Assembly (NCBI GenBank): GCA_017985935.1
Contig: JAGNWT010000001.1
Coordinates: 32,871-96,870, forward strand
Length of the DNA: 64,000 nt
Origin: Anaerolineales bacterium
GTDB lineage: Bacteria; Chloroflexota; Anaerolineae; Anaerolineales; Villigracilaceae
Reading direction: 5' to 3'
The notes beneath the pieces were generated by a model. That model was not told the origin of the DNA. It worked only from the letters and a program-made list of their open reading frames with translations, and made no database searches. Shown here piece by piece: positions 8,605 to 19,331 of this stretch (the stretch's first letter is position 1; each line of letters begins with the position of its first letter). Made by a program: the position numbers and the translations under genes.

Positions 8605-9882
8605 CTAAGCATCCTTTGTCAGGTTTTCCAAAAATTCAATATTGTTCTTCGCGCGTTCCATGCGGGTGATGATGGCTTCGGTGGCTACAGAGTTATCCAT
8701 GCCAGCGCCCTGCGGCGGAGGTGAGGTCATCTGAATGAACATACGGCGCATCAGCCAAACGCGTTGGAGAAGATCGGGTCCGAGCAGCAGGTCTTCGCGG
8801 CGGGTGGACGAACGTTCGATATCCACAGCGGGGAAGGTGCGGCGTTCCTGCAGTTTACGCGAGAGGTGCAACTCCATATTGCCGGTACCCTTGAATTCTT
8901 CGTACACCACATCATCAAGGCGTGAGCCGGTATCAACCAGACAGGTGGCGATGATGGTCAACGAGCCGCCTTCTTCCACGTTACGAGCCGCGCCAAAGAA
9001 ACGCTTGGGCGGGTACAACGCGGAGGGATCCATACCGCCGGAGAGTGTGCGCCCAGAAGGGTTGACTGTCAGATTGTAGGCTCGGGCGAGGCGGGTGATC
9101 GAGTCCATTAAGATTACCACGTGACGACCGATCTCCACCAATCTCTTAGCACGGTCTAAGGCAAGCTCGGCTGTGCGAACATGCGAGGTGACTGGCTCAT
9201 CAAATGTGGAAGCAACCACTTCAGCATCTACGGAGCGGTCCATATCGGTCACTTCTTCGGGGCGTTCGCCGATGAGGGCAATAATTAAATGTACGTCGGG
9301 ATATTTGGTTGAGATCGAATTTGCGATCTGCTTCAAAATCGTGGTTTTGCCCGCCTTGGGAGGAGAAACGATCAATCCGCGCTGCCCTCTGCCGATCGGT
9401 GCGATCAGGTTGATCAAACGGGGTGCTAGAGTGTCGTGATCTAATTCGAGGTCAAATCTTGTGTCTGGGAAGATCGGGGTGAGGTTTTCAAAAACGATCC
9501 TGCGTGAGCCGGTCTCTGGTTCGAGCCCATTGATCGATTCAACTTTTAGAAGACCAAAGTGCCTTTCACTTTCACGCGGCGGGCGGACCTGCCCAATGAC
9601 GAGATCTCCGGCTCGAAGGTCATACTTTCTCAACTGCGCCTGCGAAACGTACACATCCTGGTCGCTGATCCGGTAATTGGTTGCCCGCAAGAACCCGATC
9701 CCTTCGCTTAAGATCTCAAGGATACCGCCGCGCAGCTCAATGCCTTCCTTTTGAGCTTCCGCCTCGCGGATCATCATGGCGAGAGACTCTTTTTTCATGC
9801 GGTTGAAATTCGGGATGTTCAGGCTCTTCGCCATGCTGCGCAGTTTCGCCAGCGGTTGGTTCTCTAGTTCTAGTATTTTCAT
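8605..9882 (-). CDS. rho: Transcription termination factor Rho
   Basis: GRGQRGLIVSPPKAGKT, ERPEEVTD, GRTLSGG, EEFKGTGNMEL. Confidence 0.97.
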   Translation of the reverse strand: MKILELENQPLAKLRSMAKSLNIPNFNRMKKESLAMMIREAEAQKEGIELRGGILEILSEGIGFLRATNYRISDQDVYVSQAQLRKYDLRAGDLVIGQVRPPRESERHFGLLKVESINGLEPETGSRRIVFENLTPIFPDTRFDLELDHDTLAPRLINLIAPIGRGQRGLIVSPPKAGKTTILKQIANSISTKYPDVHLIIALIGERPEEVTDMDRSVDAEVVASTFDEPVTSHVRTAELALDRAKRLVEIGRHVVILMDSITRLARAYNLTVNPSGRTLSGGMDPSALYPPKRFFGAARNVEEGGSLTIIATCLVDTGSRLDDVVYEEFKGTGNMELHLSRKLQERRTFPAVDIERSSTRREDLLLGPDLLQRVWLMRRMFIQMTSPPPQGAGMDNSVATEAIITRMERAKNNIEFLENLTKDA

Positions 9883-10176: not shown

Positions 10177-10211
10177 AAAAAACAGAGCCGGAAACCCCGG
10201 CTCTGTTTTTT
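10177..10211 (-). terminator. Intrinsic terminator ending the sqr transcript
   Basis: AAAAAACAGAGCCGG-aaacc-CCGGCTCTGTTTTTT. Confidence 0.8.
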
Positions 10212-10224
10212 GGGTCGACATTAT

Positions 10225-10353
10225 CTAAGACCGTTTGCTTTGATACACAGCGATCAATATCTTGACGTTCAAGACGATGAAGCGCCAGAGTTGATAAAGT
10301 TTAAAGTTCATCCAGAACTTTTCGGCTTTTGAGAATTCTTGTGAGGTATTCAT
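10225..10353 (-). CDS. 42-aa small protein immediately downstream of sqr
   Basis: Below the track threshold; hand-translated MNTSQEFSKAEKFWMNFKLYQLWRFIVLNVKILIAVYQSKRS. GGAG RBS overlaps the sqr TAG stop; ends just before the terminator. Confidence 0.7.
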   Translation of the reverse strand: MNTSQEFSKAEKFWMNFKLYQLWRFIVLNVKILIAVYQSKRS

Positions 10354-10363
10354 TTCGGTTCTC

Positions 10364-11803
10364 CTATTCGGGGATGATGGTCCAGCCGGGGCGGGCTTTG
10401 AACTTCCAGATGAAGGTGTGGTGAAGCATGAACTTCATCCATGCGCCGCTGACGCCCATTTCGAGATGAGAGGTGAACAGGTCGCGCCCAAACTCATTGG
10501 GGAATTTCTTGCGATCTGGAACCACGGGATGCATAACGATCACGACCGCATTTCCATCCCAGAGAGAATCTCCCATGGAAGCGATGCAGGCGGCGACCAT
10601 GTCGGTCATGGGTTCGCGATGGGTCATCTCCCCCTTTTCGATCAAGTCCACGATGTTGAGAGCAACGACCCGCCCGATCACGCCGCTGACCATGCCTGTG
10701 CGTGGAGGCGCTGGGGCAATAGCCAGGTTGTTCTTGTTCGTGAACGGCTTGGAGATCGGCCCGGGAGGAGCGAAGGCAATGCCCGCGGCGAACATGTTCT
10801 TGTAGGTAGGATTCTGATATTGCGCCGGCCATGCTTCGGGGGTCTGGGCAAGCTCGGGGTAAGGCAGACCGTATTTTCCATCGACCAGGAGAAATCCCGC
10901 TGGGTTGGTCAATTTGGAGGTGATGTCTTCGCCGTTCTTGTCGATATATTTGAAGGGCTGTCCTTTGAATTGCGGGATGAGCATGGAGAAGTCGAAATCG
11001 GTAGTGCCTTCTTCGCCTTCGTAGTTCTGCCAGTGGATCTTGCCTTCTTCGATCTTGGTGACACCGGTCTGCACTTGATAGCGAATGCCATGATCGTTGA
11101 AGACGGAGGTGAGGAATTCCTCGCTCTTTATCACATGCCCATTGCGTTTGATCTGCACGCCGTTAACGCCGAAGTCTCCCATGGCGGGCTCGTTCGAAAG
11201 CCAGAGAATATCGGCTTTATCGCGCAGCCCTTTTTTGACGAGGTCTTTGTGGACATTGACAATGTATTCAAATGCCGCGCCCTGACAGGTTGCGCCGGGG
11301 TGACCTGTGCCAATGACGATCTTGACCTTTTCGCCTTTGCCCATGCGGTCACACAAGGCTAGGTAGGCATCACGGGTTTTGATGGCATGCGGAAGCGAGC
11401 AGATGGAGTGTGTGAAGCCGTTCTCGGGTCCGAGACCAGGGGTGCCGGCAAAGTTGAGGAGCGGCCCGGGCGCAACGACAAGGTAATCGTAATCAAGGCG
11501 CACTTCCTTGTCGGTGCCGACTTCATTCCCAAGCACATATTGGTCGCCTGCATCCGGGTGGATCTCTTTGGCGGCGGCGTGAACGAATTTGACGTTCATC
11601 TTGTCGTACACAGGCTTGAGCTTGAAGACGGTCTTTTCAGGTTTCATGTGACCGACCCCCACCCACACCCACGAGGGGACGTACCCGAACACATCGCGAT
11701 TGCTGATGACGGTGACCTCGTGTTTCCTGCCGATCTTGCTGCCGAGATACAGAGCCGCAGTATGCCCTGCGAAGCCCGCCCCAATTACAACAACTTTAGC
11801 CAT
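10364..11803 (-). CDS. sqr: Sulfide:quinone oxidoreductase, SqrF (type VI)-like flavoprotein
   Basis: Rossmann VVIGAGFAG; HSICSLPHA; GTGHPGATCQGAAFEY; APPRTGM; AACIASMG; amphipathic C-terminus; GGAGG RBS. Confidence 0.82.
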   Translation of the reverse strand: MAKVVVIGAGFAGHTAALYLGSKIGRKHEVTVISNRDVFGYVPSWVWVGVGHMKPEKTVFKLKPVYDKMNVKFVHAAAKEIHPDAGDQYVLGNEVGTDKEVRLDYDYLVVAPGPLLNFAGTPGLGPENGFTHSICSLPHAIKTRDAYLALCDRMGKGEKVKIVIGTGHPGATCQGAAFEYIVNVHKDLVKKGLRDKADILWLSNEPAMGDFGVNGVQIKRNGHVIKSEEFLTSVFNDHGIRYQVQTGVTKIEEGKIHWQNYEGEEGTTDFDFSMLIPQFKGQPFKYIDKNGEDITSKLTNPAGFLLVDGKYGLPYPELAQTPEAWPAQYQNPTYKNMFAAGIAFAPPGPISKPFTNKNNLAIAPAPPRTGMVSGVIGRVVALNIVDLIEKGEMTHREPMTDMVAACIASMGDSLWDGNAVVIVMHPVVPDRKKFPNEFGRDLFTSHLEMGVSGAWMKFMLHHTFIWKFKARPGWTIIPE

Positions 11804-11826
11804 GGTTTCTTCCTCCTTCGGGAATT

Positions 11827-11871
11827 AAAAAAGATCAGGACAGGCAGGGGCACACGCCGCTGTCTGTCCTG
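11827..11871 (-). terminator. Terminator-like hairpin in the sqr leader
   Basis: Minus strand CAGGACAGACAG...CTGCCTGTCCTG then ATCTTTTTT, ending about 10 nt before the sqr RBS. Confidence 0.55.
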
Positions 11872-12138
11872 TTGACGACAACCCATTGCACACACGAAAA
11901 GTCACATCCCTGCAAGCGAGGGAGCGTTCCACTTTTCTGAAAGGTGAGCACACGAGGCATGGTGAATAACTCCATTCATCTGAAATGATGTGGAATTCAC
12001 GACGTCATCGATCAATAAAATAATGACGTCCCGCGTATTTGGCTATCAGATCATATTAAATTTGAGGTTGGTCCGAAACTCTGTAGCTTTCCTGCTTCGA
12101 CACATTCCGCCATTAATAGCGGAATGAAATTGGAGAAC

Positions 12139-12564
12139 TTATTTGGGGTTTGGGTAAGCTGTCTCTTCGCCGGGGACATCCATACCTTCGAGCAGGCGCG
12201 TCCCATACAGTTGTCCATCCACTGTGATCGTGTATTCGCCCGTGCCAGAGATGGCTTGATCCGCGCCGGCAATACTGACCCAGGTAAATATCAGTTTGTT
12301 GCCTTCCAAAGTTCCCGCACCTTCTTGAATGCCGCCAGAGACCAGCCACTGGAATTTGAATTCATTGGGCTGCCCGCCAGCAGAAATGGTGAGCGTGCCG
12401 CCATATTCCTCGCCATGAGGGTCTGTGGCATTAAGCGCGTAAGAGCCGAGAATATCAGGGATGTTATCGGCTGGCGCGTCCGCGCCGAGCGGACCGGGTT
12501 TGTTCCGTCCGCAAGCCGAAAGGAAAAAAGTCAGTAACAAAAACAGGATTGCAATTCTTTTCAT
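12139..12564 (-). CDS. Hypothetical lipoprotein
   Basis: Signal peptide with lipobox LSAC; beta-rich 141-aa body. Confidence 0.75.
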   Translation of the reverse strand: MKRIAILFLLLTFFLSACGRNKPGPLGADAPADNIPDILGSYALNATDPHGEEYGGTLTISAGGQPNEFKFQWLVSGGIQEGAGTLEGNKLIFTWVSIAGADQAISGTGEYTITVDGQLYGTRLLEGMDVPGEETAYPNPK

Positions 12565-12617
12565 GTTTCCTCTAGTAACGGCACAGACGGGTAAACCTCC
12601 CGTCCATTGCCCTGTAT

Positions 12618-14957
12618 TTAATCATCTTCTTCCATGGTCATCAGGAATGCGATCAGATCGTTGATCTGCTCTTCGGTCAGGATCTGCCCAAAGTTTTGGA
12701 TCATCTGTCCCGCAGGATAGCCCGGAACAACAAATGCGTTCGGCTCAACAATGGACTGCCTCAAGTAATCCTCAGCAGACATCCCGGGCACACGCTCTTC
12801 GGCTCGGTCTGCAATGCCATAAAATGACGGTCCGATGATCGTCTCACCTTTTTCCAGCGAATGGCAGATGCGGCATCCCGCATTGACCGCTGAAGTGGTC
12901 TCGTAGTAAATGCTTTCGCCCGCCTTCGGGTCTGCAATGTGGACATCCCTGAAGTTAATGGTCAGGTATTGTCTTTCAGCAAGTGAAATCGTGTTGTTAA
13001 ACAGCACCTGTTCGACATCTTCATCAGGGCGGTCATACATTTTGATGACCACATGATGAGTTCCCACCGGCAAGTGTACCTGCTCAAAGATACGCACACC
13101 TTGATTGATATGGTTATCCGTGGCGGTATAAGTTTTATCGAACTTCAGTTTTCCGTCCACTTCCAAAGTAATTCGGGTCGGGTGTTCAAGTTCTGGATCC
13201 ACTTCTGCAAGGCTGGCGGCATCATGGACGGCATACCCGCTATGGTGAGTCATTTGTATCGCAAGAGCAGCAGTATCTGCGGCATAGAACTTTGTCTGCC
13301 AATCACCAAGCCAGATGTAAAACGCGCTGATGACAGCAAGCACTCCCAAAGCCGGCAGGATAAATCGGATATGAGATCGATCGGGCGTGAATTTGAACGT
13401 GTTCGGATCTGACTTAATCTGTGACTTGATCGCCTTACCAAAGTCGGTCGGCGCCGCCCAGGCAGTATGCACCAGCGGAATGAAGTCGGGTTTCAGCTTG
13501 GGAAGCCGCTCGCCATTTGCACGATCGTTCATCCAGACATTGCCTTCACGATTGGCACAGTCTTCGGGCGGGCAGCCAATGAACTGCACATCACTGGCAC
13601 CGGCTTCAAGCGCCTGCGCCGCAAGGTTGGGATTCGCCATTGCAATACAAGTCAACGGGACAATGTGAACATTCGGGTCGTTGAAGTGTGCGCCAACTCC
13701 ATGCAAAGCATGACGCTCACAAGTGAAAACAACCTTTACATTTTTCTTTTCTGCAACCTGGCCGAGGGTGGTCTTCCAAAGCGGGTTGAGCGGAATATCG
13801 CCAAAGGTCAGGGCGTTATCGGGGCAGCTGCCGATACACACGCCGCAAGAGACACAAAGTTTGGGGTCGATCTCTGCCTGGAATTTGGGGCGTGCCCCAT
13901 CAGTGCGCGGGACCATCTTGATGGCAAGATAAGGACAATCGCGTTCGCAAAGCGTGCAGCCATCGCAATTGGACAAGTCCACTTTGACGGGTTCGAGTTT
14001 TTTTGCGCGGGGCATGATCCACGGCAATGCAAGGAAAAAGCCGAGACCAAAAAGCAGAACGCTCCAAAAAAGAGCCTGGGGTCCGCGCAGGAAAGTGGGC
14101 AGATAAAATAAATAAAATAAGTCAATGGGGGCTTCCGCAGGGAATTGAGTGGCGCTGAGAGGCGGCAGCATTCCAAGCGGAAAAAGAGCCGATGCAAGCA
14201 GCAGCACCAGCGTTGAGATGACCATCCAATATTTGGGCGGCAGCCACTTGGCACGGCTCATGCGTTTCAAGTGCAGCCAAAGGAAATATCCCGTCAATGC
14301 GGAAAGCCCCAAATGCAGGACGATCACAAGCATCATAAAGACCCAGCCTGTGCCGGCCGCGTCACCGACAATGAAGTCGACGATAAAGGCCTGTCCGCTT
14401 TGGAAATTTCCAAGAACCTGGTAAAGGCTTTGGTTTAAGATCTGCGCGCGGTTATCCCAGATCAACCAGTAGCCTGTGATGCCGATCACCCAGACCACCA
14501 CGGCCATCCCCACACCAGTCACCCACGCCAGCCAGCGCGGACCACGGAAGCGATCCTGGAAGAAGGTGCGCCATCCATGCAGCAGCCCGAAAATGACCGC
14601 CGCATCAGATGCGTAGCGGTGCATGGCACGGATCACGCGCCCGATGAAGTTCGATTCGATGCTGGAGACCGCCCGATAGGAAAAAGTGAATCCGAACGGG
14701 TAGAACATGGTGAGGTAGATCCCGGTCAACAGAATGACGACCAGCAGGAAGATGGTGATCGTCCCCGTGTGATACAGGGGATTAAAGCGCGGGTCGTTGA
14801 CCAGCCAGTTGATGGGGGCTTCGAGGCGCAGGGAGATGTTCTCGAAAAAATTGATCAGGCGTCGGCTGGGGGAATTGAGCCGCGCATTCCAATCCACGCT
14901 AGGGTTGCGCTCAGAGAGGGAATCCGTCAGTTGTTTTTTTTCAGGGGAAGAGGTCAT
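12618..14957 (-). CDS. Fusion of cytochrome b-like domain, 2x[4Fe-4S] ferredoxin, MvhD/FlpD-like Fe-S domain, TM helix and monoheme cytochrome c
   Basis: Two H-x13-H heme b pairs (HRYASDAAVIFGLLH; HLGLSALTGYFLWLH); CDGCTLCERDCP and CVSCGVCIGSCP; FTCERH..LTC..GCPPEDCANREG; CRICH...GPSF...M. Confidence 0.85.
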   Translation of the reverse strand: MTSSPEKKQLTDSLSERNPSVDWNARLNSPSRRLINFFENISLRLEAPINWLVNDPRFNPLYHTGTITIFLLVVILLTGIYLTMFYPFGFTFSYRAVSSIESNFIGRVIRAMHRYASDAAVIFGLLHGWRTFFQDRFRGPRWLAWVTGVGMAVVVWVIGITGYWLIWDNRAQILNQSLYQVLGNFQSGQAFIVDFIVGDAAGTGWVFMMLVIVLHLGLSALTGYFLWLHLKRMSRAKWLPPKYWMVISTLVLLLASALFPLGMLPPLSATQFPAEAPIDLFYLFYLPTFLRGPQALFWSVLLFGLGFFLALPWIMPRAKKLEPVKVDLSNCDGCTLCERDCPYLAIKMVPRTDGARPKFQAEIDPKLCVSCGVCIGSCPDNALTFGDIPLNPLWKTTLGQVAEKKNVKVVFTCERHALHGVGAHFNDPNVHIVPLTCIAMANPNLAAQALEAGASDVQFIGCPPEDCANREGNVWMNDRANGERLPKLKPDFIPLVHTAWAAPTDFGKAIKSQIKSDPNTFKFTPDRSHIRFILPALGVLAVISAFYIWLGDWQTKFYAADTAALAIQMTHHSGYAVHDAASLAEVDPELEHPTRITLEVDGKLKFDKTYTATDNHINQGVRIFEQVHLPVGTHHVVIKMYDRPDEDVEQVLFNNTISLAERQYLTINFRDVHIADPKAGESIYYETTSAVNAGCRICHSLEKGETIIGPSFYGIADRAEERVPGMSAEDYLRQSIVEPNAFVVPGYPAGQMIQNFGQILTEEQINDLIAFLMTMEEDD

Positions 14958-15036
14958 TGTTTATTCACGATGCAGGTAACTTCGCGTAAATGATAATAAT
15001 AAAAGTAAGCGCAATTAATAAAGGTCGCGAAATGAA

Positions 15037-15085
15037 AAAAAGAAAGGGGTGGCAGCCGCCTGCAATGCAAACGACTGCCACCCAG
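15037..15085 (-). terminator. Terminator-like hairpin after cbaA
   Basis: GGGTGGCAG...CTGCCACCC inverted repeat followed by a T-rich tract on the minus strand. Confidence 0.5.
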
Positions 15086-15093
15086 TGATAAAA

Positions 15094-16743
15094 CTACCAG
15101 ACTTTGAAGCCGGGTGAAGTGAGCGAGATGTTCTTGATCATGTCGAAGAGCTGGGGCCCATAGACGATGACGATCAAGGCGAGGGTACCGTACACCCAGG
15201 GAGCCCAGCGGTCGAGCCAATCGGGGGTGAGGGCGGGATCCTGCATGGCTTCAGCCACGGGGACTTCCACTTCTTCCTTGACAGTTTCCTTGTTCAGGGC
15301 AGTCATCAACATGACGGCGAGATAGAGGAAACCGCTGACGAAGAGGATCGCGCCACCGAGACCGACCTGGAAGAGGCGGCTGTTCCATTCCGCAGGAACG
15401 TAGGGAGCGAGGTTGAGCGGTACGCGGCGGGGAGCGCCGAGCAAGCCGAGGACATGCATGGAGTTGGAGAAGATGATCATACCAACGAACCAGGTCCAGG
15501 CTTGAGCCACAGCCCACTTGGGCTTCCAGAGTTTCTTACCGGTGAGGTAAGGCAGGAGCCAGTAGGAAATACCCATGAAGCTCAGGGTCACGCCAGTAGC
15601 CACAGTGAGGTGGAAGTGACCGGGGACAAAGGCGGTATTGTGCAAAACAAGGTTGACGTTGTAGGAAGCATTCGCCAAACCACCGATACCACCAAAGAAG
15701 AACAGGATGCCGGCGAGAAGCTGGGCGGCCACAGAGGGATCACTCCAGTTCAACTTGCCGATCCAGGCGAGAGCGCCCTTGCCACCGTTTTTGCGTCCAG
15801 CGTGCTCGAGGGAGGCGACCACGGTAAAGGCGGTCATCATGGAGGGGAAGAACACACCAAAGGTGAGCATGGCATGCAGGAACTTCCAGGCGGGGGGAAC
15901 GCCGGGATCCACATATTGGTGGTGGAAGCCAAGCGGGGTGGAGAGAACGAGGAAGATCCAGAAGGAAAGGCGGGCGAGTGTATCGCTGAACATCTTGCCA
16001 TTGCCAGCCTGCTTGGGAAGCATGGCATACCAGGAGATGTATGCAGGCAGAAGCCAGAAGTACACGAGCGGGTGACCGGTGAACCAGAAGTAGGTACGAG
16101 CCAATTGCGGGTCTACGCCTTCGAGCAGTCCGAGCGACCAGGGCAGGAGCATGGTGAGGATCTCAACAGCAACGCCGATGGTGCAGATCTGCCAGAGTAA
16201 AGCGGTAAGGATACTGGCGAACGCAATGAACGGGGAGCGTTCATTGGGATTTTCCTTGCGCCAGGCCACGTAGGTCATGAAGAGACCCCAGCCTTCAACC
16301 CAACTGCCGACGACCACCAAAGTCAAACCGAGATAAAAAGCCCAGTTCGCTTTGAGAGGCGGATAGAAGGTGAAGAGCACGGTCGCCTGATTGGCAAGGA
16401 TCGGGATCGCAGCAGCAACCACGCCAACGACCATGATCCAGAAACCAACAACATTCAAGGTCATGTTCTTCAGGGGGCGCTTCAAACCGAAAATGACATT
16501 GAAGGTCAGGAAGCCCATGATGAAGAAGGTCGTCCAGACCAGGGCGTTCAACACACCGTGAACGGTCAAACCCTGATAGTAAGACTTAATGAACGGCTTG
16601 AGATAAACATAAACATCCCAACCCGCATGTTCAAAAGCCTGCAACGGTCCAAAAAGACTGCCGACAGCAAGCGCGAGGATGGCAGTCAAAAGGTGCCAAC
16701 CGATGAATTTCTTTTCGCCAGTGGATAATTGATATTGTTTCAT
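15094..16743 (-). CDS. cbaA: ba3-type (B-family) cytochrome c oxidase subunit I
   Basis: HGVLNAL, WFTGHPLVYFW (His-Tyr crosslink motif), GFHHQY, HFHLTV; about 13 TM helices. Confidence 0.93.
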   Translation of the reverse strand: MKQYQLSTGEKKFIGWHLLTAILALAVGSLFGPLQAFEHAGWDVYVYLKPFIKSYYQGLTVHGVLNALVWTTFFIMGFLTFNVIFGLKRPLKNMTLNVVGFWIMVVGVVAAAIPILANQATVLFTFYPPLKANWAFYLGLTLVVVGSWVEGWGLFMTYVAWRKENPNERSPFIAFASILTALLWQICTIGVAVEILTMLLPWSLGLLEGVDPQLARTYFWFTGHPLVYFWLLPAYISWYAMLPKQAGNGKMFSDTLARLSFWIFLVLSTPLGFHHQYVDPGVPPAWKFLHAMLTFGVFFPSMMTAFTVVASLEHAGRKNGGKGALAWIGKLNWSDPSVAAQLLAGILFFFGGIGGLANASYNVNLVLHNTAFVPGHFHLTVATGVTLSFMGISYWLLPYLTGKKLWKPKWAVAQAWTWFVGMIIFSNSMHVLGLLGAPRRVPLNLAPYVPAEWNSRLFQVGLGGAILFVSGFLYLAVMLMTALNKETVKEEVEVPVAEAMQDPALTPDWLDRWAPWVYGTLALIVIVYGPQLFDMIKNISLTSPGFKVW

Positions 16744-16760
16744 GATGTCTCTCTTTCAGC

Positions 16761-17264
16761 CTATGGCGTAACAATGATTGCGCCGTACATGACGCCATGT
16801 CCGCTGCCGCAGTATTCGGTACAAATGAAGTTGTAGGTACCGGGCTTGTCAAACTTGACAGTCAACTTGGAGACCTGTCCGGGGATGACCATGAAGTTCG
16901 CATTTGTATCCTGGATCTTGAAGCCATGCTGAACATCAGATGAAGTCACATAGAAGGAAATGCTCGAGCCAGCAGGCACGGTGATCTCCTTGGGCAGATA
17001 TTCCCAATTGGGAATCGCACGCGCCAGGATATAGGCATCATACTTCTTGCCGGCTTCGATCTCACGCAGTCCAGGGTTGGACCAGGGGCTATTGGGATCG
17101 GTGGCAACGGTGCGGGGATCAACACGTTGTTCTGGGGCGGGAACTTGAATTCCCATACCAAAGGCCGCAACACTGACAGCCGTCGCAAATAACACAAGCA
17201 GGATGGCGCTGAAGATCATCCAGTTGCGCTCGTAGGGATCGATGTGCATTTGCTTGGTGCTCAT
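16761..17264 (-). CDS. cbaB: ba3-type cytochrome c oxidase subunit II (CuA)
   Basis: Single TM helix; DVQHGF and CTEYCGSGHGVM CuA motifs. Confidence 0.93.
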   Translation of the reverse strand: MSTKQMHIDPYERNWMIFSAILLVLFATAVSVAAFGMGIQVPAPEQRVDPRTVATDPNSPWSNPGLREIEAGKKYDAYILARAIPNWEYLPKEITVPAGSSISFYVTSSDVQHGFKIQDTNANFMVIPGQVSKLTVKFDKPGTYNFICTEYCGSGHGVMYGAIIVTP

Positions 17265-17398
17265 AGTGTGCCTCCTCTGCCGACAAGGATCATATAGATC
17301 GTTGCCCAGATTGCGATGAGTGTGACCACAAATATCGCCAAAACCGCGATCGTACCGGTCGGGCGAAACTCATCATCTTCTTTATCTTTTTTCGCCAT
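17261..17398 (-). CDS. cbaD: ba3-type oxidase subunit IIa (45 aa)
   Basis: Below the track threshold; MAKKDKEDDEFRPTGTIAVLAIFVVTLIAIWATIYMILVGRGGTL matches the P-x-G...W...Y...RG pattern of Thermus CbaD. GAGGAG RBS; ATGA overlap with cbaB. Confidence 0.85.
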   Translation of the reverse strand: MAKKDKEDDEFRPTGTIAVLAIFVVTLIAIWATIYMILVGRGGTL

Positions 17399-17508
17399 GT
17401 TACATTCTCCTCATAAAAGTGATGGATTTGGAATCTGCCGCTTCATACGGCCCGCAAACTGCGGAGGGGGAAATGGAGATTCTTCAGCGCTTTACCAGTT
17501 CCACCTCC

Positions 17509-18099
17509 TTATTGCCTTAGCATGTATTCCAGATCATCGGCGATCTCGTCAACCGTTACGCCGAATGGAAATACCAACTTTAAGTAACCCTCACGGTCAA
17601 TGACCAGCAAAGTGGCCGTGTGGTCGATCAGATAGCCCGTGGCATCTGATCCGGGCTGCACTTGATAAAAAATTCCATAAAGGGATGTCACCTGCGCAAT
17701 ATCCTGCTCAGTGCCGGTGATGCCAATAAAGGAAGGGTGAAAGTGGGTCACATACTCTGCAAGTTTCTGCGGCGTGTCCCGTTCAGGATCAAGTGAGATC
17801 ATGATGGTCTGAACTTCGCTGGCTTTATCTTCACCCAGATTTCGCAATGCCTGCCCAACATTCGCCAGTGTAGCCGGGCAAATGTCTGGGCAAAAGGTAT
17901 AACCAAAATAAATAAGTACAAGCTTGCCGCGATAGTCATTTAATGAAACGTCGCCATCTTTCCCTGTCAACTTAAAATCAAAGGAAGGCTCGGGCGATTG
18001 AATGACCGTGCCGTGGAAAGTATGCGGACGGAAGAAGTACACCCCGACGGCTAATCCGAGCATTACAACAACAATGGGAAGAACGACCTTGAGTTTCAT
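17509..18099 (-). CDS. SCO1/SenC copper chaperone
   Basis: FGYTFCPDICP (CxxxC) plus conserved IDHT histidine; N-terminal anchor. Confidence 0.92.
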   Translation of the reverse strand: MKLKVVLPIVVVMLGLAVGVYFFRPHTFHGTVIQSPEPSFDFKLTGKDGDVSLNDYRGKLVLIYFGYTFCPDICPATLANVGQALRNLGEDKASEVQTIMISLDPERDTPQKLAEYVTHFHPSFIGITGTEQDIAQVTSLYGIFYQVQPGSDATGYLIDHTATLLVIDREGYLKLVFPFGVTVDEIADDLEYMLRQ

Positions 18100-18126
18100 T
18101 GATAAATCTTTTTCCTTATTGAATGG

Positions 18127-18801
18127 TCATGGCGCATAACATAGAAATAAATGGGCAGCTTCGTAAGCCAATTTTGAAGTGCCGTCGCTATTTTGAACCT
18201 CTTCCGCTAACACTCCCAAGTGACGAAGGATGCGGTCAGCGCTGGAAACCTCGGTCTGGTAACGATATTCAGCGCGGACAATTCCCCAGCCATCTACCAG
18301 CACATAAGCGGGGTCAAAAGCAAAATCACCGTTGCCTTTATCTTCGTAATATGTTTCAAAGCCCGAACTGATAATGGTCTTAAGCAACATCTTGTTGGTG
18401 GTGCTCGCGAACTGCCAACGGCTCACATCCGCGCCCAACGACTTGGCATAAGCGTTCAAAACTTCCGGGGTATCTCGATCGGGGTCAATGGAGATGGTGA
18501 CGAAAGAAACATCAACACCGCCCAGGTCCACTTCGTTCAACCGAGCCTGCACTTCCTGCATTGTCTCGTCGATGTTATAGCAAGGCTCGGGACAATTTGT
18601 GTATGTAAAGGTATAGAGTATGAACTTTCCACGAAGTTCTTCGCTGGTAAGCTGCTCATTATCCTGATCGGTAAGGTTGAAAGCCGGAGATAACTGCATG
18701 CGCGGCAATACCTGGATCGGCTGAAAAACCTTGAAGGCGACTGCCGAAATCACGATCAGACCTAAAATGCCGTAAATGCCATTCAACAGGTATTTGTTCA
18801 T
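18127..18801 (-). CDS. Second SCO-family protein (atypical)
   Basis: FTYTNCPEPC, VTISIDPDRDT; FDPA in place of the usual His motif; C-terminal HLFLC. Confidence 0.8.
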   Translation of the reverse strand: MNKYLLNGIYGILGLIVISAVAFKVFQPIQVLPRMQLSPAFNLTDQDNEQLTSEELRGKFILYTFTYTNCPEPCYNIDETMQEVQARLNEVDLGGVDVSFVTISIDPDRDTPEVLNAYAKSLGADVSRWQFASTTNKMLLKTIISSGFETYYEDKGNGDFAFDPAYVLVDGWGIVRAEYRYQTEVSSADRILRHLGVLAEEVQNSDGTSKLAYEAAHLFLCYAP

Positions 18802-19286
18802 GCGAGTACTTTACCTGTCAAAACTGGAACCGGCGCAGAGACAAATGAAATGTTCGCATTCAGGCTGGCGTCCAATAATTCGCCCTCTTCCACCAATTGC
18901 TGAAAGGAGATTAGCGCCATTTCCTTGCGAAGCATGTTCTTGAGCCTCACCCACTGACAATGGACCGGGCACTTTAACTCAAAGGGACATTCGCCCGGTT
19001 TCAGGATGCAGTCTGAAAGATAGATTTCGCCTTCAAAATGCTCAACCACCTGAAGCAGGGATATCTCTTTGGGCGCGCGAGCAAGGGAGATTCCCCCGTC
19101 ACGACCGGCTTGAGTGTGAATAAACCCGCCGCTGGATAATTCCGCCACGATCCGTTGAAGTAACGAAGGCGGAATCAACATTTCACGCCCAATTTCCGAG
19201 GTAGGCACGCGGGCACCCCGGTCCCTTTTGGAAAGGGCCAGTATCACTCGAACGGCGTAATCGGTTTGGCGGTTGATTTTTAGCAT
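18798..19286 (-). CDS. Rrf2 family Fe-S transcriptional regulator
   Basis: RQTDYAVR wHTH start, GRDGGISLAR, C-x6-C-x5-C-x2-H. Start ATG 19286 (track 19301). Confidence 0.88.
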   Translation of the reverse strand: MLKINRQTDYAVRVILALSKRDRGARVPTSEIGREMLIPPSLLQRIVAELSSGGFIHTQAGRDGGISLARAPKEISLLQVVEHFEGEIYLSDCILKPGECPFELKCPVHCQWVRLKNMLRKEMALISFQQLVEEGELLDASLNANISFVSAPVPVLTGKVLA

Positions 19287-19331
19287 AAATTTTCCATTCA
19301 ATGTTGAGCATTATTGTCAACGTTGACTGTT

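Follow-up and report, generated by a model that had tools for sequence, protein, structure and literature searches.

We analysed a 64,000-nucleotide (nt) stretch of DNA from an Anaerolineales bacterium of the Villigracilaceae (Chloroflexota; GenBank assembly GCA_017985935.1, contig JAGNWT010000001.1, positions 32,871 to 96,870), hereafter called the window, in which a gene for sulfide:quinone oxidoreductase (SQR) lies close to genes for a terminal oxidase. The host assembly is 3.82 Mb in size with a completeness of 96.6%. Ten genes, all on the minus strand, lie within window positions 10225-19301: rrf2, two sco genes, cbaD, cbaB, cbaA, a gene that fuses cytochrome b, Fe-S and cytochrome c domains, a lipoprotein gene, sqr and a 42-amino-acid (aa) open reading frame (ORF). 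An original prediction, made from the letters of the sequence, had listed these genes and read them as one locus encoding a possible complete sulfide-to-oxygen chain. The gene list was correct: ORF analysis combined with Pfam, NCBIfam and PDB searches showed all ten genes to be real and co-oriented. The genes and the features between them are given below.

18798..19301, minus strand: rrf2, probably starting with the ATG at 19286 (Pfam Rrf2 2e-28; TIGR00738 1.5e-25)
18127..18801, minus strand: divergent Sco/thioredoxin-fold gene with a CPEPC motif (SCO1-SenC 6.5e-21)
17509..18099, minus strand: canonical sco copper chaperone gene with a CPDIC motif (SCO1-SenC 3.9e-42)
17261..17398, minus strand: cbaD, ba3 subunit IIa, 45 aa with one transmembrane helix (phmmer: 1xme_C of Thermus, E=0.004; 7deg_C of Aquifex)
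16761..17264, minus strand: cbaB, subunit II with a CuA site (COX2/cupredoxin 9.6e-10; CoxB TIGR02866 7e-20)
15094..16743, minus strand: cbaA, B-family (ba3-type) haem-copper oxidase subunit I (Thermus thermophilus ba3 subunit I, E=4e-143, residues 9-549)
15047..15083, minus strand: 17-base-pair (bp) GC-rich hairpin with a T-run, 10 nt past the cbaA stop, terminator-like or RNA-stabilising
14981..15033, minus strand: conserved element upstream of the fusion gene, TTTCGC-(AT-rich, ~40 nt)-GCGAAA
12618..14957, minus strand: gene for the 779-aa fusion protein (Pfam, NCBIfam and PDB domain matches)
12139..12564, minus strand: gene for a 141-aa lipoprotein with a lipobox and a weak LIC10280-family match (6e-10, below cut-off)
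11945..12053, minus strand: 5' domain of the sqr leader, ~110 nt, three predicted helices around a junction (alignments, RNAalifold, covariance model R1 at 103 bits)
11826..11874, minus strand: leader terminator or attenuator, a 16-bp hairpin with a T-run just ahead of the sqr ribosome-binding site
10364..11803, minus strand: sqr, 479 aa (Acidithiobacillus ferrooxidans SQR, E=5e-41; Aquifex aeolicus type I SQR, 4e-38; Pyr_redox_2 8.6e-16)
10225..10353, minus strand: 42-aa hydrophobic/amphipathic ORF (tblastn synteny with sqr)
10183..10199, minus strand: terminator-like hairpin with a T-run that closes the sqr/42-aa unit before rho (hairpin scan)
8605-9882: rho, the downstream neighbour of the sqr/42-aa unit

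On balance, we favour reading this stretch as a terminal-oxidase island at a conserved chromosomal site of the Villigracilaceae (Anaerolineales), between lgt and rho, that comprises three adjacent and separately punctuated units. The first would be rrf2-sco-sco-cbaDBA, which specifies a CuA-containing ba3-type cytochrome c oxidase and its copper chaperones with an Fe-S-type regulator at the head; the second, the cytochrome b/Fe-S/cytochrome c fusion with the lipoprotein; and the third, a portable cassette of sqr and the 42-aa ORF with its own leader and terminator.

The oxidase is closely related to biochemically known ba3 enzymes. CbaA matches the Aquifex ba3 oxidase with E=9e-114 and A-family enzymes with 1e-15 or weaker, and its six His metal ligands and HPxVY cross-link Tyr are in register with the Thermus protein (vHgvln, tgHPlvYfw, gfHHq and pgHfH, which hold the HPLVY, HH and HFH motifs). 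The CuA motif of CbaB can be read in the sequence as H..CTEYCGSGHGVM, that is, H...C-T-E-Y-C-G-S-G-H-G-V-M, and the end of cbaD, which has GAGGAG as its ribosome-binding site, overlaps the start of cbaB by 4 nt. All four marks of the B family, namely a ba3-like subunit I, the His ligands with the Tyr, CuA and subunit IIa, are therefore present, and the predicted CuA site in subunit II marks a cytochrome c oxidase and not a quinol oxidase. The ba3 oxidase of Thermus takes its electrons from soluble cytochrome c552, which is reduced by the bc complex. That enzyme (cbaDBA; PDB 1XME/1EHK) shares with the window the closely matching subunit I, the CuA-bearing subunit II and subunit IIa, but has no fused cytochrome b/Fe-S/cytochrome c gene after cbaA. 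The rrf2 product ends in a four-Cys cluster (Cys98, Cys105, Cys111 and Cys115) typical of Fe-S-sensing members of its family.

We compared the window with 44 related loci drawn from species-representative genomes, with counts that depend on flanking sequence using fewer. The order rrf2-sco-sco-cbaB-cbaA-fusion was repeated in 41 of 41 loci with enough upstream flank, and because of this recurrence the gene order of the oxidase/fusion cluster is more than chance. As in the window, rrf2 heads the cluster in relatives, and the position of the divergent Sco-like gene is kept in at least 30 loci. Homologues of the fusion protein are almost confined to metagenome-assembled genomes (MAGs) of Anaerolineales and 'Candidatus Villigracilis', with identities of up to 86%. 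In all 41 loci whose flank was long enough, its gene had cbaA directly upstream, and this held at identities as low as 42-47%, in Caldilineales and other Chloroflexota; in the Villigracilaceae it is followed by the lipoprotein gene throughout.

SQR from the window has both the flavin adenine dinucleotide-binding fold and the three cysteines of type I enzymes, with Cys135, Cys173 and Cys406 aligning with the redox cysteines C128, C160 and C356 of the A. ferrooxidans protein (3sz0). It belongs to a clade of 476-480-aa proteins with insertions, homologs of which are labelled SQR by JGI; the nearest solved structures are type I enzymes, and its gene has the ribosome-binding site AAGGAGG. A SqrF (type VI) label is unsupported, as TrSqrF appears considerably shorter, judging from residue numbers (PMC9666304). 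These features identify the predicted protein as an SQR, which would presumably oxidise sulfide and reduce menaquinone. The 42-aa ORF has no Pfam family. In tblastn searches, nearly all sqr loci with enough flank had it directly behind sqr, whether the context was ba3-linked, bd-linked or Hdr-like, with identities of 62-96%, and in its behaviour it resembles a dedicated small subunit or membrane anchor. At one locus (L087:8099-9533, genome G075) sqr is split over two frames, and is likely to be a pseudogene or an assembly error.

We surveyed the linkage of sqr to oxidase genes in 121 genomes sampled evenly across the family. This sqr occurs in 35 of them, including 3 of 7 from the genus of the window, and the genomes without it had no copy elsewhere. 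The context was inspected in all 35 carriers and was readable in 32, the gene lying at a contig edge in the other 3. In 19 genomes the order is rrf2-cydA-cydB-sqr-42aa; in 8, sqr lies next to the ba3/fusion cluster (3 of these have a fusion variant that lacks cytochrome c and is 40% identical); in 3, it is found in an Hdr-like/LbpA/Etf/molybdenum (Mo)-oxidoreductase cluster; and in 2 it is located elsewhere. Hence 27 of the 32 readable genomes, from at least 14 genera, have sqr immediately behind the genes of a terminal oxidase, always at the lgt...rho site and by way of three different junctions (cydB-sqr, lipoprotein-sqr and variant-fusion-sqr). These 27 genomes are related, and the independent events are far fewer than 27. 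Since the linkage recurs at the same site with either bd or ba3, we conclude that the SQR-oxidase link is a real, recurrent theme that survives exchange of the oxidase partner, and this survival is the strongest support for a functional tie between the two.

The comparison of related loci showed that sqr does not belong to the oxidase cluster in every case. Of the 32 ba3/fusion loci with enough downstream sequence, 16 have the sqr/42-aa pair after the lipoprotein gene, and the presence of the pair is scattered on the fusion tree, so we regard it as an optional cassette. The order lipoprotein-sqr-42aa-rho is found in the window and three other loci; six loci have an empty site, with the lipoprotein gene leading directly to rho; and many carry a further rrf2-cydAB-cydDC cassette ahead of rho. 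On a tree of fusion proteins, sqr and cyd states are scattered, requiring 13 changes, and well-supported sister pairs (L013/L026 and L012/L025) differ in state. The original prediction had staked itself on sqr being linked to the oxidase cluster in related genomes. Its central observation, that a B-family oxidase with CuA and a candidate connecting protein are encoded next to SQR, is borne out at the locus, and the linkage holds as a theme in relatives; sqr is nevertheless absent from half of the ba3 clusters, and bd is its commoner partner. What stands of the complete chain is therefore the recurrent sqr-oxidase link, whereas a single self-sufficient chain is not established.

Three of the carriers have sqr in another setting. 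In these loci (L065:2998-15963, L061 and L069), sqr and the 42-aa ORF lie among two GcvH/LbpA-like genes and genes for a lipoate-ligase-like protein, a large Hdr-like membrane protein, EtfAB-like proteins and a Mo-oxidoreductase with a fused FeS/NrfD subunit, which may represent an sHdr-type sulfur-oxidation cluster.

Between the genes of the window we found several candidate regulatory elements. A strong hairpin follows cbaA in nearly all 41 related loci, with stem sequences that differ in the distant ones, and the TTTCGC...GCGAAA element beyond it could act as an operator or as an internal promoter. Whereas cbaD, cbaB and sqr each have a Shine-Dalgarno sequence, none could be recognised ahead of the fusion gene. 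The spacer ahead of sqr is 335 nt long and consists of the conserved 5' domain followed by the 16-bp hairpin and T-run. Over 13 loci, this leader has 18 pairs with double changes compared with 7.7 in shuffles, with none of 500 shuffles as high; 12 of the 18 fall in the terminator stem, where 12 of the 16 pairs have compensatory changes. Covariance model R1 matches only these 13 ba3-linked sqr loci, from which it was built, with no further match in the genome of the window or in 49 loci; no second gene with the leader was thus found that might hint at a ligand. The intergenic regions of the locus match no Rfam family. A leader peptide ahead of sqr, with a start that varies between ATG, TTG and GTG, was considered and rejected because L038 has a break in the frame and the peptide sequences show no conservation. 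With its conserved three-helix domain and covarying terminator hairpin, the sqr leader (11826-12053), found only ahead of ba3-linked sqr genes of 13 related species, looks like a riboswitch or attenuator. Since hairpins separate cbaA from the fusion gene, and sqr has its own leader and terminator, co-transcription of the oxidase, fusion and sqr units as one operon is doubtful.

The candidate connecting protein is the 779-aa fusion. Domain matches place cytochrome b at residues 54-232, 2x[4Fe-4S] at 323-389, an FlpD/MvhD domain at 421-480 and cytochrome c at 692-775. Its predicted order is a six-helix bc-type cytochrome b, a cytoplasmic 2x[4Fe-4S] domain, an MvhD-like [2Fe-2S] domain, one transmembrane helix, a periplasmic Ig-like sandwich and a class I cytochrome c, a topology in which the Fe-S domains would lie in the cytoplasm and cytochrome c on the outer side of the membrane. 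An AlphaFold2 model (pLDDT 75.8) superposes on full-length cytochrome b (QcrB, bc1) with its first ~320 residues and on 5odc_D with its MvhD domain. The cytochrome c domain is similar to that of caa3 subunit II (1w2l), and a fold search with the periplasmic domain found only generic Ig/CBM20-like sandwiches, with TM-scores of 0.44 or less.

We judged the conservation of fusion residues over 35 homologs. The haem b ligands H113, H127, H215 and H229, which align to b6, are invariant, providing the four histidines that mark haems bL and bH in the cytochrome b of bc1/b6f complexes. D279 and Y285 in the ef loop are invariant as well; this loop reads P-I-D-L-F-Y-L-F-Y-L-P at the position of the PEWY-type Qo motif, as placed by eye and by the fold match to helices E and F. 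Also invariant are the eight Cys of the two CxxCxxCxxxC motifs, C413, C437, C462 and C467 of the MvhD-like domain, and C695, C698 and H699 of the CxxCH motif, with M752 nearly so. His63, in an invariant HTGT motif (codon at window 14769-14771), aligns with Cys35 of b6, which binds haem cn (PMC5600118). The CxGG motif for haem ci/cn of the b6f type is not present in the fusion, which has His63 in its place. Haem cn of b6 sits next to haem bH; His63 might serve as ligand to a further cofactor forming a bridge to the Fe-S domain.

The core architecture of the fusion is already known. Kao and Hunte (2014) described a 'PDWF-FeS clade' in which cytochrome b is fused to 4Fe-4S and MvhD and has no Rieske partner, on the basis of two sequences, from Magnetospirillum and Turneriella, in a phylogeny, with no function assigned (PMC4122944). 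The fusion combines the same cytochrome b, 4Fe-4S and MvhD parts, and no Rieske gene lies in its cluster in any of 41 loci; unlike the clade it also has the Ig-like and cytochrome c domains, its ef loop is PIDLFY and it is tied to oxidase operons. This tie is solid, as almost all loci examined have the gene of the family next to a haem-copper oxidase cluster. Three subfamilies can be distinguished, each being the last gene of such a cluster. The first is the window type, with cytochrome c. The second is the cytochrome c-less variant, 40% identical to the fusion, and is preceded by cbaBA, a separate cytochrome c (41% identical to the C-terminal domain of the window fusion), an Fe-S flavoprotein and a complete b6/subunit IV/Rieske/trihaem-c set. 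The third is a 687-aa paralog without cytochrome c and the MvhD cysteines, which is also encoded on contig C130 of the genome of the window, in a type of cluster kept in 7 of 8 relatives checked.

Two of these contexts contain further redox genes. At L067:552-10204 (genus g32), and also at L100 and L101, the order is cbaA, monohaem cytochrome c, a 661-aa Fe-S flavoprotein, b6, subunit IV, Rieske, trihaem cytochrome c and the c-less fusion variant, then sqr and rrf2-cydAB; this Rieske/cytochrome b complex with an NAD(P)-type flavoprotein recalls anammox-type complexes. The C130 cluster (69346-76875) comprises genes for subunit II, which has the CuA motif, for a 595-aa haem-copper oxidase, for DsbD_2 and Cu P-type ATPase proteins and for the 687-aa paralog. 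Its oxidase has no cross-link tyrosine (HPAQQ) and is possibly a nitric oxide-reductase-type enzyme.

The rest of the genome is well supplied with respiratory genes. It had been predicted that no bc1/Rieske complex or alternative complex III (ACIII) belongs to the locus, and this is true in that the locus has neither Rieske genes nor the ActA-ActB-ActC-ActD-ActE gene set. Elsewhere, however, the genome has an ACIII-like operon (C131:828-7561) and two Rieske/cytochrome b complexes (C136 and C128), and its three Rieske genes all lie on contigs other than that of the window. There are three haem-copper oxidases, namely a caa3 enzyme on C54, the ba3 oxidase of the window and the tyrosine-less enzyme on C130, and no cytochrome bd, so that ba3 is the oxidase beside sqr here. 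Multihaem cytochrome clusters also occur; one (C76:19000-29500) encodes four cytochromes with 7-10 CxxCH each, an NrfD-like protein and a twin-arginine translocation Fe-S subunit, which suggests that multihaem electron transfer takes place outside the cell or in the periplasm. In wastewater and groundwater, filamentous Anaerolineales of the Villigracilis type are abundant, and they are often regarded as fermenters. The ACIII, the two bc complexes, the caa3 oxidase and the third oxidase show that the lineage, which the original prediction had noted as often described as fermentative, is not merely so.

We consider it somewhat probable that the adjacency of sqr and oxidase genes reflects a sulfide-detoxifying or sulfide-respiring branch at the terminal-oxidase island. 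SQR would pass electrons from sulfide to menaquinone, the quinol would be re-oxidised via a branch ending in the high-affinity, probably sulfide-tolerant ba3 oxidase, and the fused cytochrome c domain would be the likely electron donor to CuA. Most relatives with sqr would build the same branch with the same cassette behind cytochrome bd, a quinol oxidase. We infer that the pairing serves sulfide-tolerant, sulfide-consuming respiration by analogy with the Aquifex supercomplex, the response of SQR and ba3 in Methylacidiphilum and the presence of bd in relatives. In Aquifex aeolicus, SQR, bc1 and ba3 form a sulfide oxidase-oxygen reductase supercomplex that follows the same logic, with sulfide electrons reaching O2 via quinone (PMC3128077, PMC10205796). 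Like the window, it combines an SQR that resembles type I and has three redox cysteines with a ba3 of three subunits, IIa among them (CbaA and CbaD match 7deg); it uses a Rieske/cytochrome b complex, whereas the window locus has in that place an uncharacterised fusion linked by gene adjacency alone. Aquifex ba3 can also take naphthoquinol directly (PMC8251803). In Methylacidiphilum fumariolicum SolV, H2S induces both SQR and a ba3 oxidase that is insensitive to sulfide (PMC10205796), a pairing like that of the window and proposed there as a detoxifying, energy-yielding route. The SolV genes are, however, unlinked, the SQR is of type III and the proposed connectors are ACIII and a heptahaem cytochrome; the SolV pairing rests on expression and respiration data, whereas that of the window is known from the genome. 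Finally, cytochrome bd of Escherichia coli is a sulfide-resistant quinol oxidase (PMC4815019), and the sqr/42-aa cassette found directly after cydB in the 19 bd-linked genomes, at the same chromosomal site, would give a two-enzyme route from sulfide to O2. The window has at that position a cytochrome c oxidase and the fusion.

Several observations weigh against a dedicated sulfide branch ending in ba3. Besides the optional nature of sqr, with sister species differing, its usual oxidase partner is bd (19 genomes compared with 8 for ba3/fusion), which weakens a ba3-specific chain, and in three genomes, one of them from the genus of the window, sqr is found in the Hdr-like/LbpA/Etf cluster instead. 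The terminator-like hairpins lie both between cbaA and the fusion gene and ahead of sqr, and in bd-linked relatives a hairpin and T-run also separate cydB from sqr. Given the caa3 oxidase, ACIII and two bc complexes of the genome, SQR may just feed the general quinone pool, and the sulfide tolerance of the window ba3 is extrapolated from other organisms. In addition, HemB/ALAD (porphobilinogen synthase, PF00490) was not found in the 96.6%-complete genome, and CtaA (haem A synthase) is present; the same genome still encodes three haem-copper oxidases and many c-type cytochromes. Haem might tentatively be imported or scavenged, an auxotrophy combined with haem modification, as judged from one marker in a MAG. 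We think it rather unlikely, all the same, that the sqr-oxidase adjacency has no functional meaning, such that lgt-rho is a variable region of cassettes (sqr with the 42-aa ORF, and rrf2-cydAB-cydDC) and SQR is a sulfide detoxifier only, which feeds the general menaquinone pool while electrons exit by any route. The scatter of both cassettes on the fusion tree, the empty sites, the separately terminated transcription units and the occurrence of this sqr in just 35 of 121 family genomes would all fit such a view. It does not readily explain why sqr lies just downstream of whichever oxidase is present in 27 of 32 readable genomes, why the oxidase-sqr junction has been re-formed in at least three ways, or why the partners are bd and ba3, oxidase types that have been reported to be sulfide-tolerant (PMC4815019, PMC10205796).

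How the fused cytochrome c is reduced is the second point on which readings differ, and gene content does not separate the options. The original prediction ran from menaquinol through the fusion to CuA. A candidate connector is indeed adjacent, but the step itself is an inference, and a role as an accessory factor fits the contexts of the family about equally well. It is quite possible, if short of probable, that menaquinol is oxidised by the cytochrome b of the fusion itself, with no Rieske protein taking part, and that cytochrome c is reduced in this way. The argument that no other complex III is available, and that the fusion must hence be the link, was examined in three relatives without canonical cytochrome b, and it fails because two of them and the genome of the window carry ACIII-like operons. 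With ACIII and the bc complexes in the genome, the ba3 oxidase has no need of the fusion for its electrons, and it is also a serious possibility that these complexes reduce cytochrome c and that the b/Fe-S part acts in oxidase biogenesis or maintenance. We regard as possible, though somewhat less than probable, the specific form of this idea in which the fusion is an accessory or maintenance factor analogous to CcoG/FixG and not a substitute for complex III, so that the locus is not a self-contained chain. Electrons from quinol or a cytoplasmic donor would then pass through haems b and the Fe-S centres to reduce Cu(II) or keep Sco/CuA thiols reduced, and the C-terminal cytochrome c would be a tethered ba3 donor reduced by ACIII or the bc complexes. 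CcoG, a membrane-bound 2x[4Fe-4S] cupric reductase of cbb3 assembly, has an Ig-like domain in the periplasm, and its gene neighbours that of the Cu-ATPase CcoI (PMC7558416). The fusion parallels it in having a membrane part, two cytoplasmic [4Fe-4S] clusters, a C-terminal periplasmic Ig-like domain and a gene just past the oxidase structural genes; the Cu-ATPase neighbour is matched in the context of the paralog, which lies with subunit II, haem-copper oxidase, DsbD_2 and Cu P-type ATPase genes in 7 of 8 loci. Further points that fit are the two sco genes of the window cluster, the position of the window fusion behind a strong hairpin without a Shine-Dalgarno sequence, which suggests lower expression than that of the oxidase, and the subfamily context in which cbaA and the c-less variant flank genes for an entire Rieske/cytochrome b complex and for a separate cytochrome c. 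CcoG has no haems, MvhD domain or cytochrome c, however, and no detectable sequence homology: neither the fusion nor the paralog nor the isolated periplasmic domain matched a FixG/CcoG family (Fer4_5, Fer4_18 or FixG_C) in Pfam and NCBIfam, and a Pfam search for CcoG homology at E up to 10 was also negative. Because the periplasmic domain is a generic sandwich and no FixG family matches, the likeness of the family's contexts to ccoNOQP-ccoGHIS is architectural and not one of family membership. The fusion has kept a whole bc-type cytochrome b, with an invariant Asp and Tyr at the Qo position that a plain electron wire would not need, and no copper-binding motif was identified in it. The ba3 oxidases of Thermus and Aquifex are not known to need such a protein for their assembly.

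Two further roles for the fusion appear improbable. In one, it is a quinone-independent transmembrane conduit from the cytoplasm to the periplasm, in which a low-potential donor reduces the MvhD-like [2Fe-2S] and [4Fe-4S] centres and electrons continue through haems bH and bL to cytochrome c and CuA, allowing a largely fermentative cell to burn excess reductant on trace O2, with SQR unrelated. The order and topology of the cofactors would form a continuous chain from inside to outside, MvhD domains are electron connectors between proteins in Mvh-Hdr complexes (as in the 5odc_D match) and a parallel exists in the Tmc/Hmc-type complexes of sulfate reducers, which combine cytochrome c, cytochrome b and cytoplasmic Fe-S. 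On the other hand, the cluster encodes no candidate cytoplasmic partner, the Qo-like motif is conserved, the MvhD cysteines are lost in the paralog and outward electron flow would dissipate membrane potential. The other role, for which we would give a similarly small chance, is that of a Rieske-less electron-bifurcating menaquinol oxidase acting on quinol that includes the product of the neighbouring SQR. One electron would then go through the fused cytochrome c and CuA to O2 and the other through haems b to the [4Fe-4S]/[2Fe-2S] centres to yield a low-potential reductant. Were this so, sulfide oxidation at low O2 would provide proton-motive force and ferredoxin-level electrons without reverse electron transport.

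Returning to the favoured reading of a sulfide branch at a terminal-oxidase island, the arrangement is a variant of a known pairing, that of SQR with a sulfide-tolerant oxidase, and includes a protein family that is linked to oxidases and uncharacterised, together with a candidate for a new leader RNA. If confirmed, the sqr leader would be an undescribed cis-regulatory RNA that controls a sulfide-oxidation gene. The locus also offers a natural comparison for the role of the fusion, as the same cassette occupies the same site behind bd or behind ba3 with the fusion; this protein could be a new quinol-to-cytochrome c oxidase route or a new redox factor of oxidase assembly. For the Villigracilaceae as a whole, a conserved sqr cassette carried by about a third of the family, mostly behind a terminal oxidase, suggests that micro-oxic respiration which tolerates and consumes sulfide is a trait of their niche.

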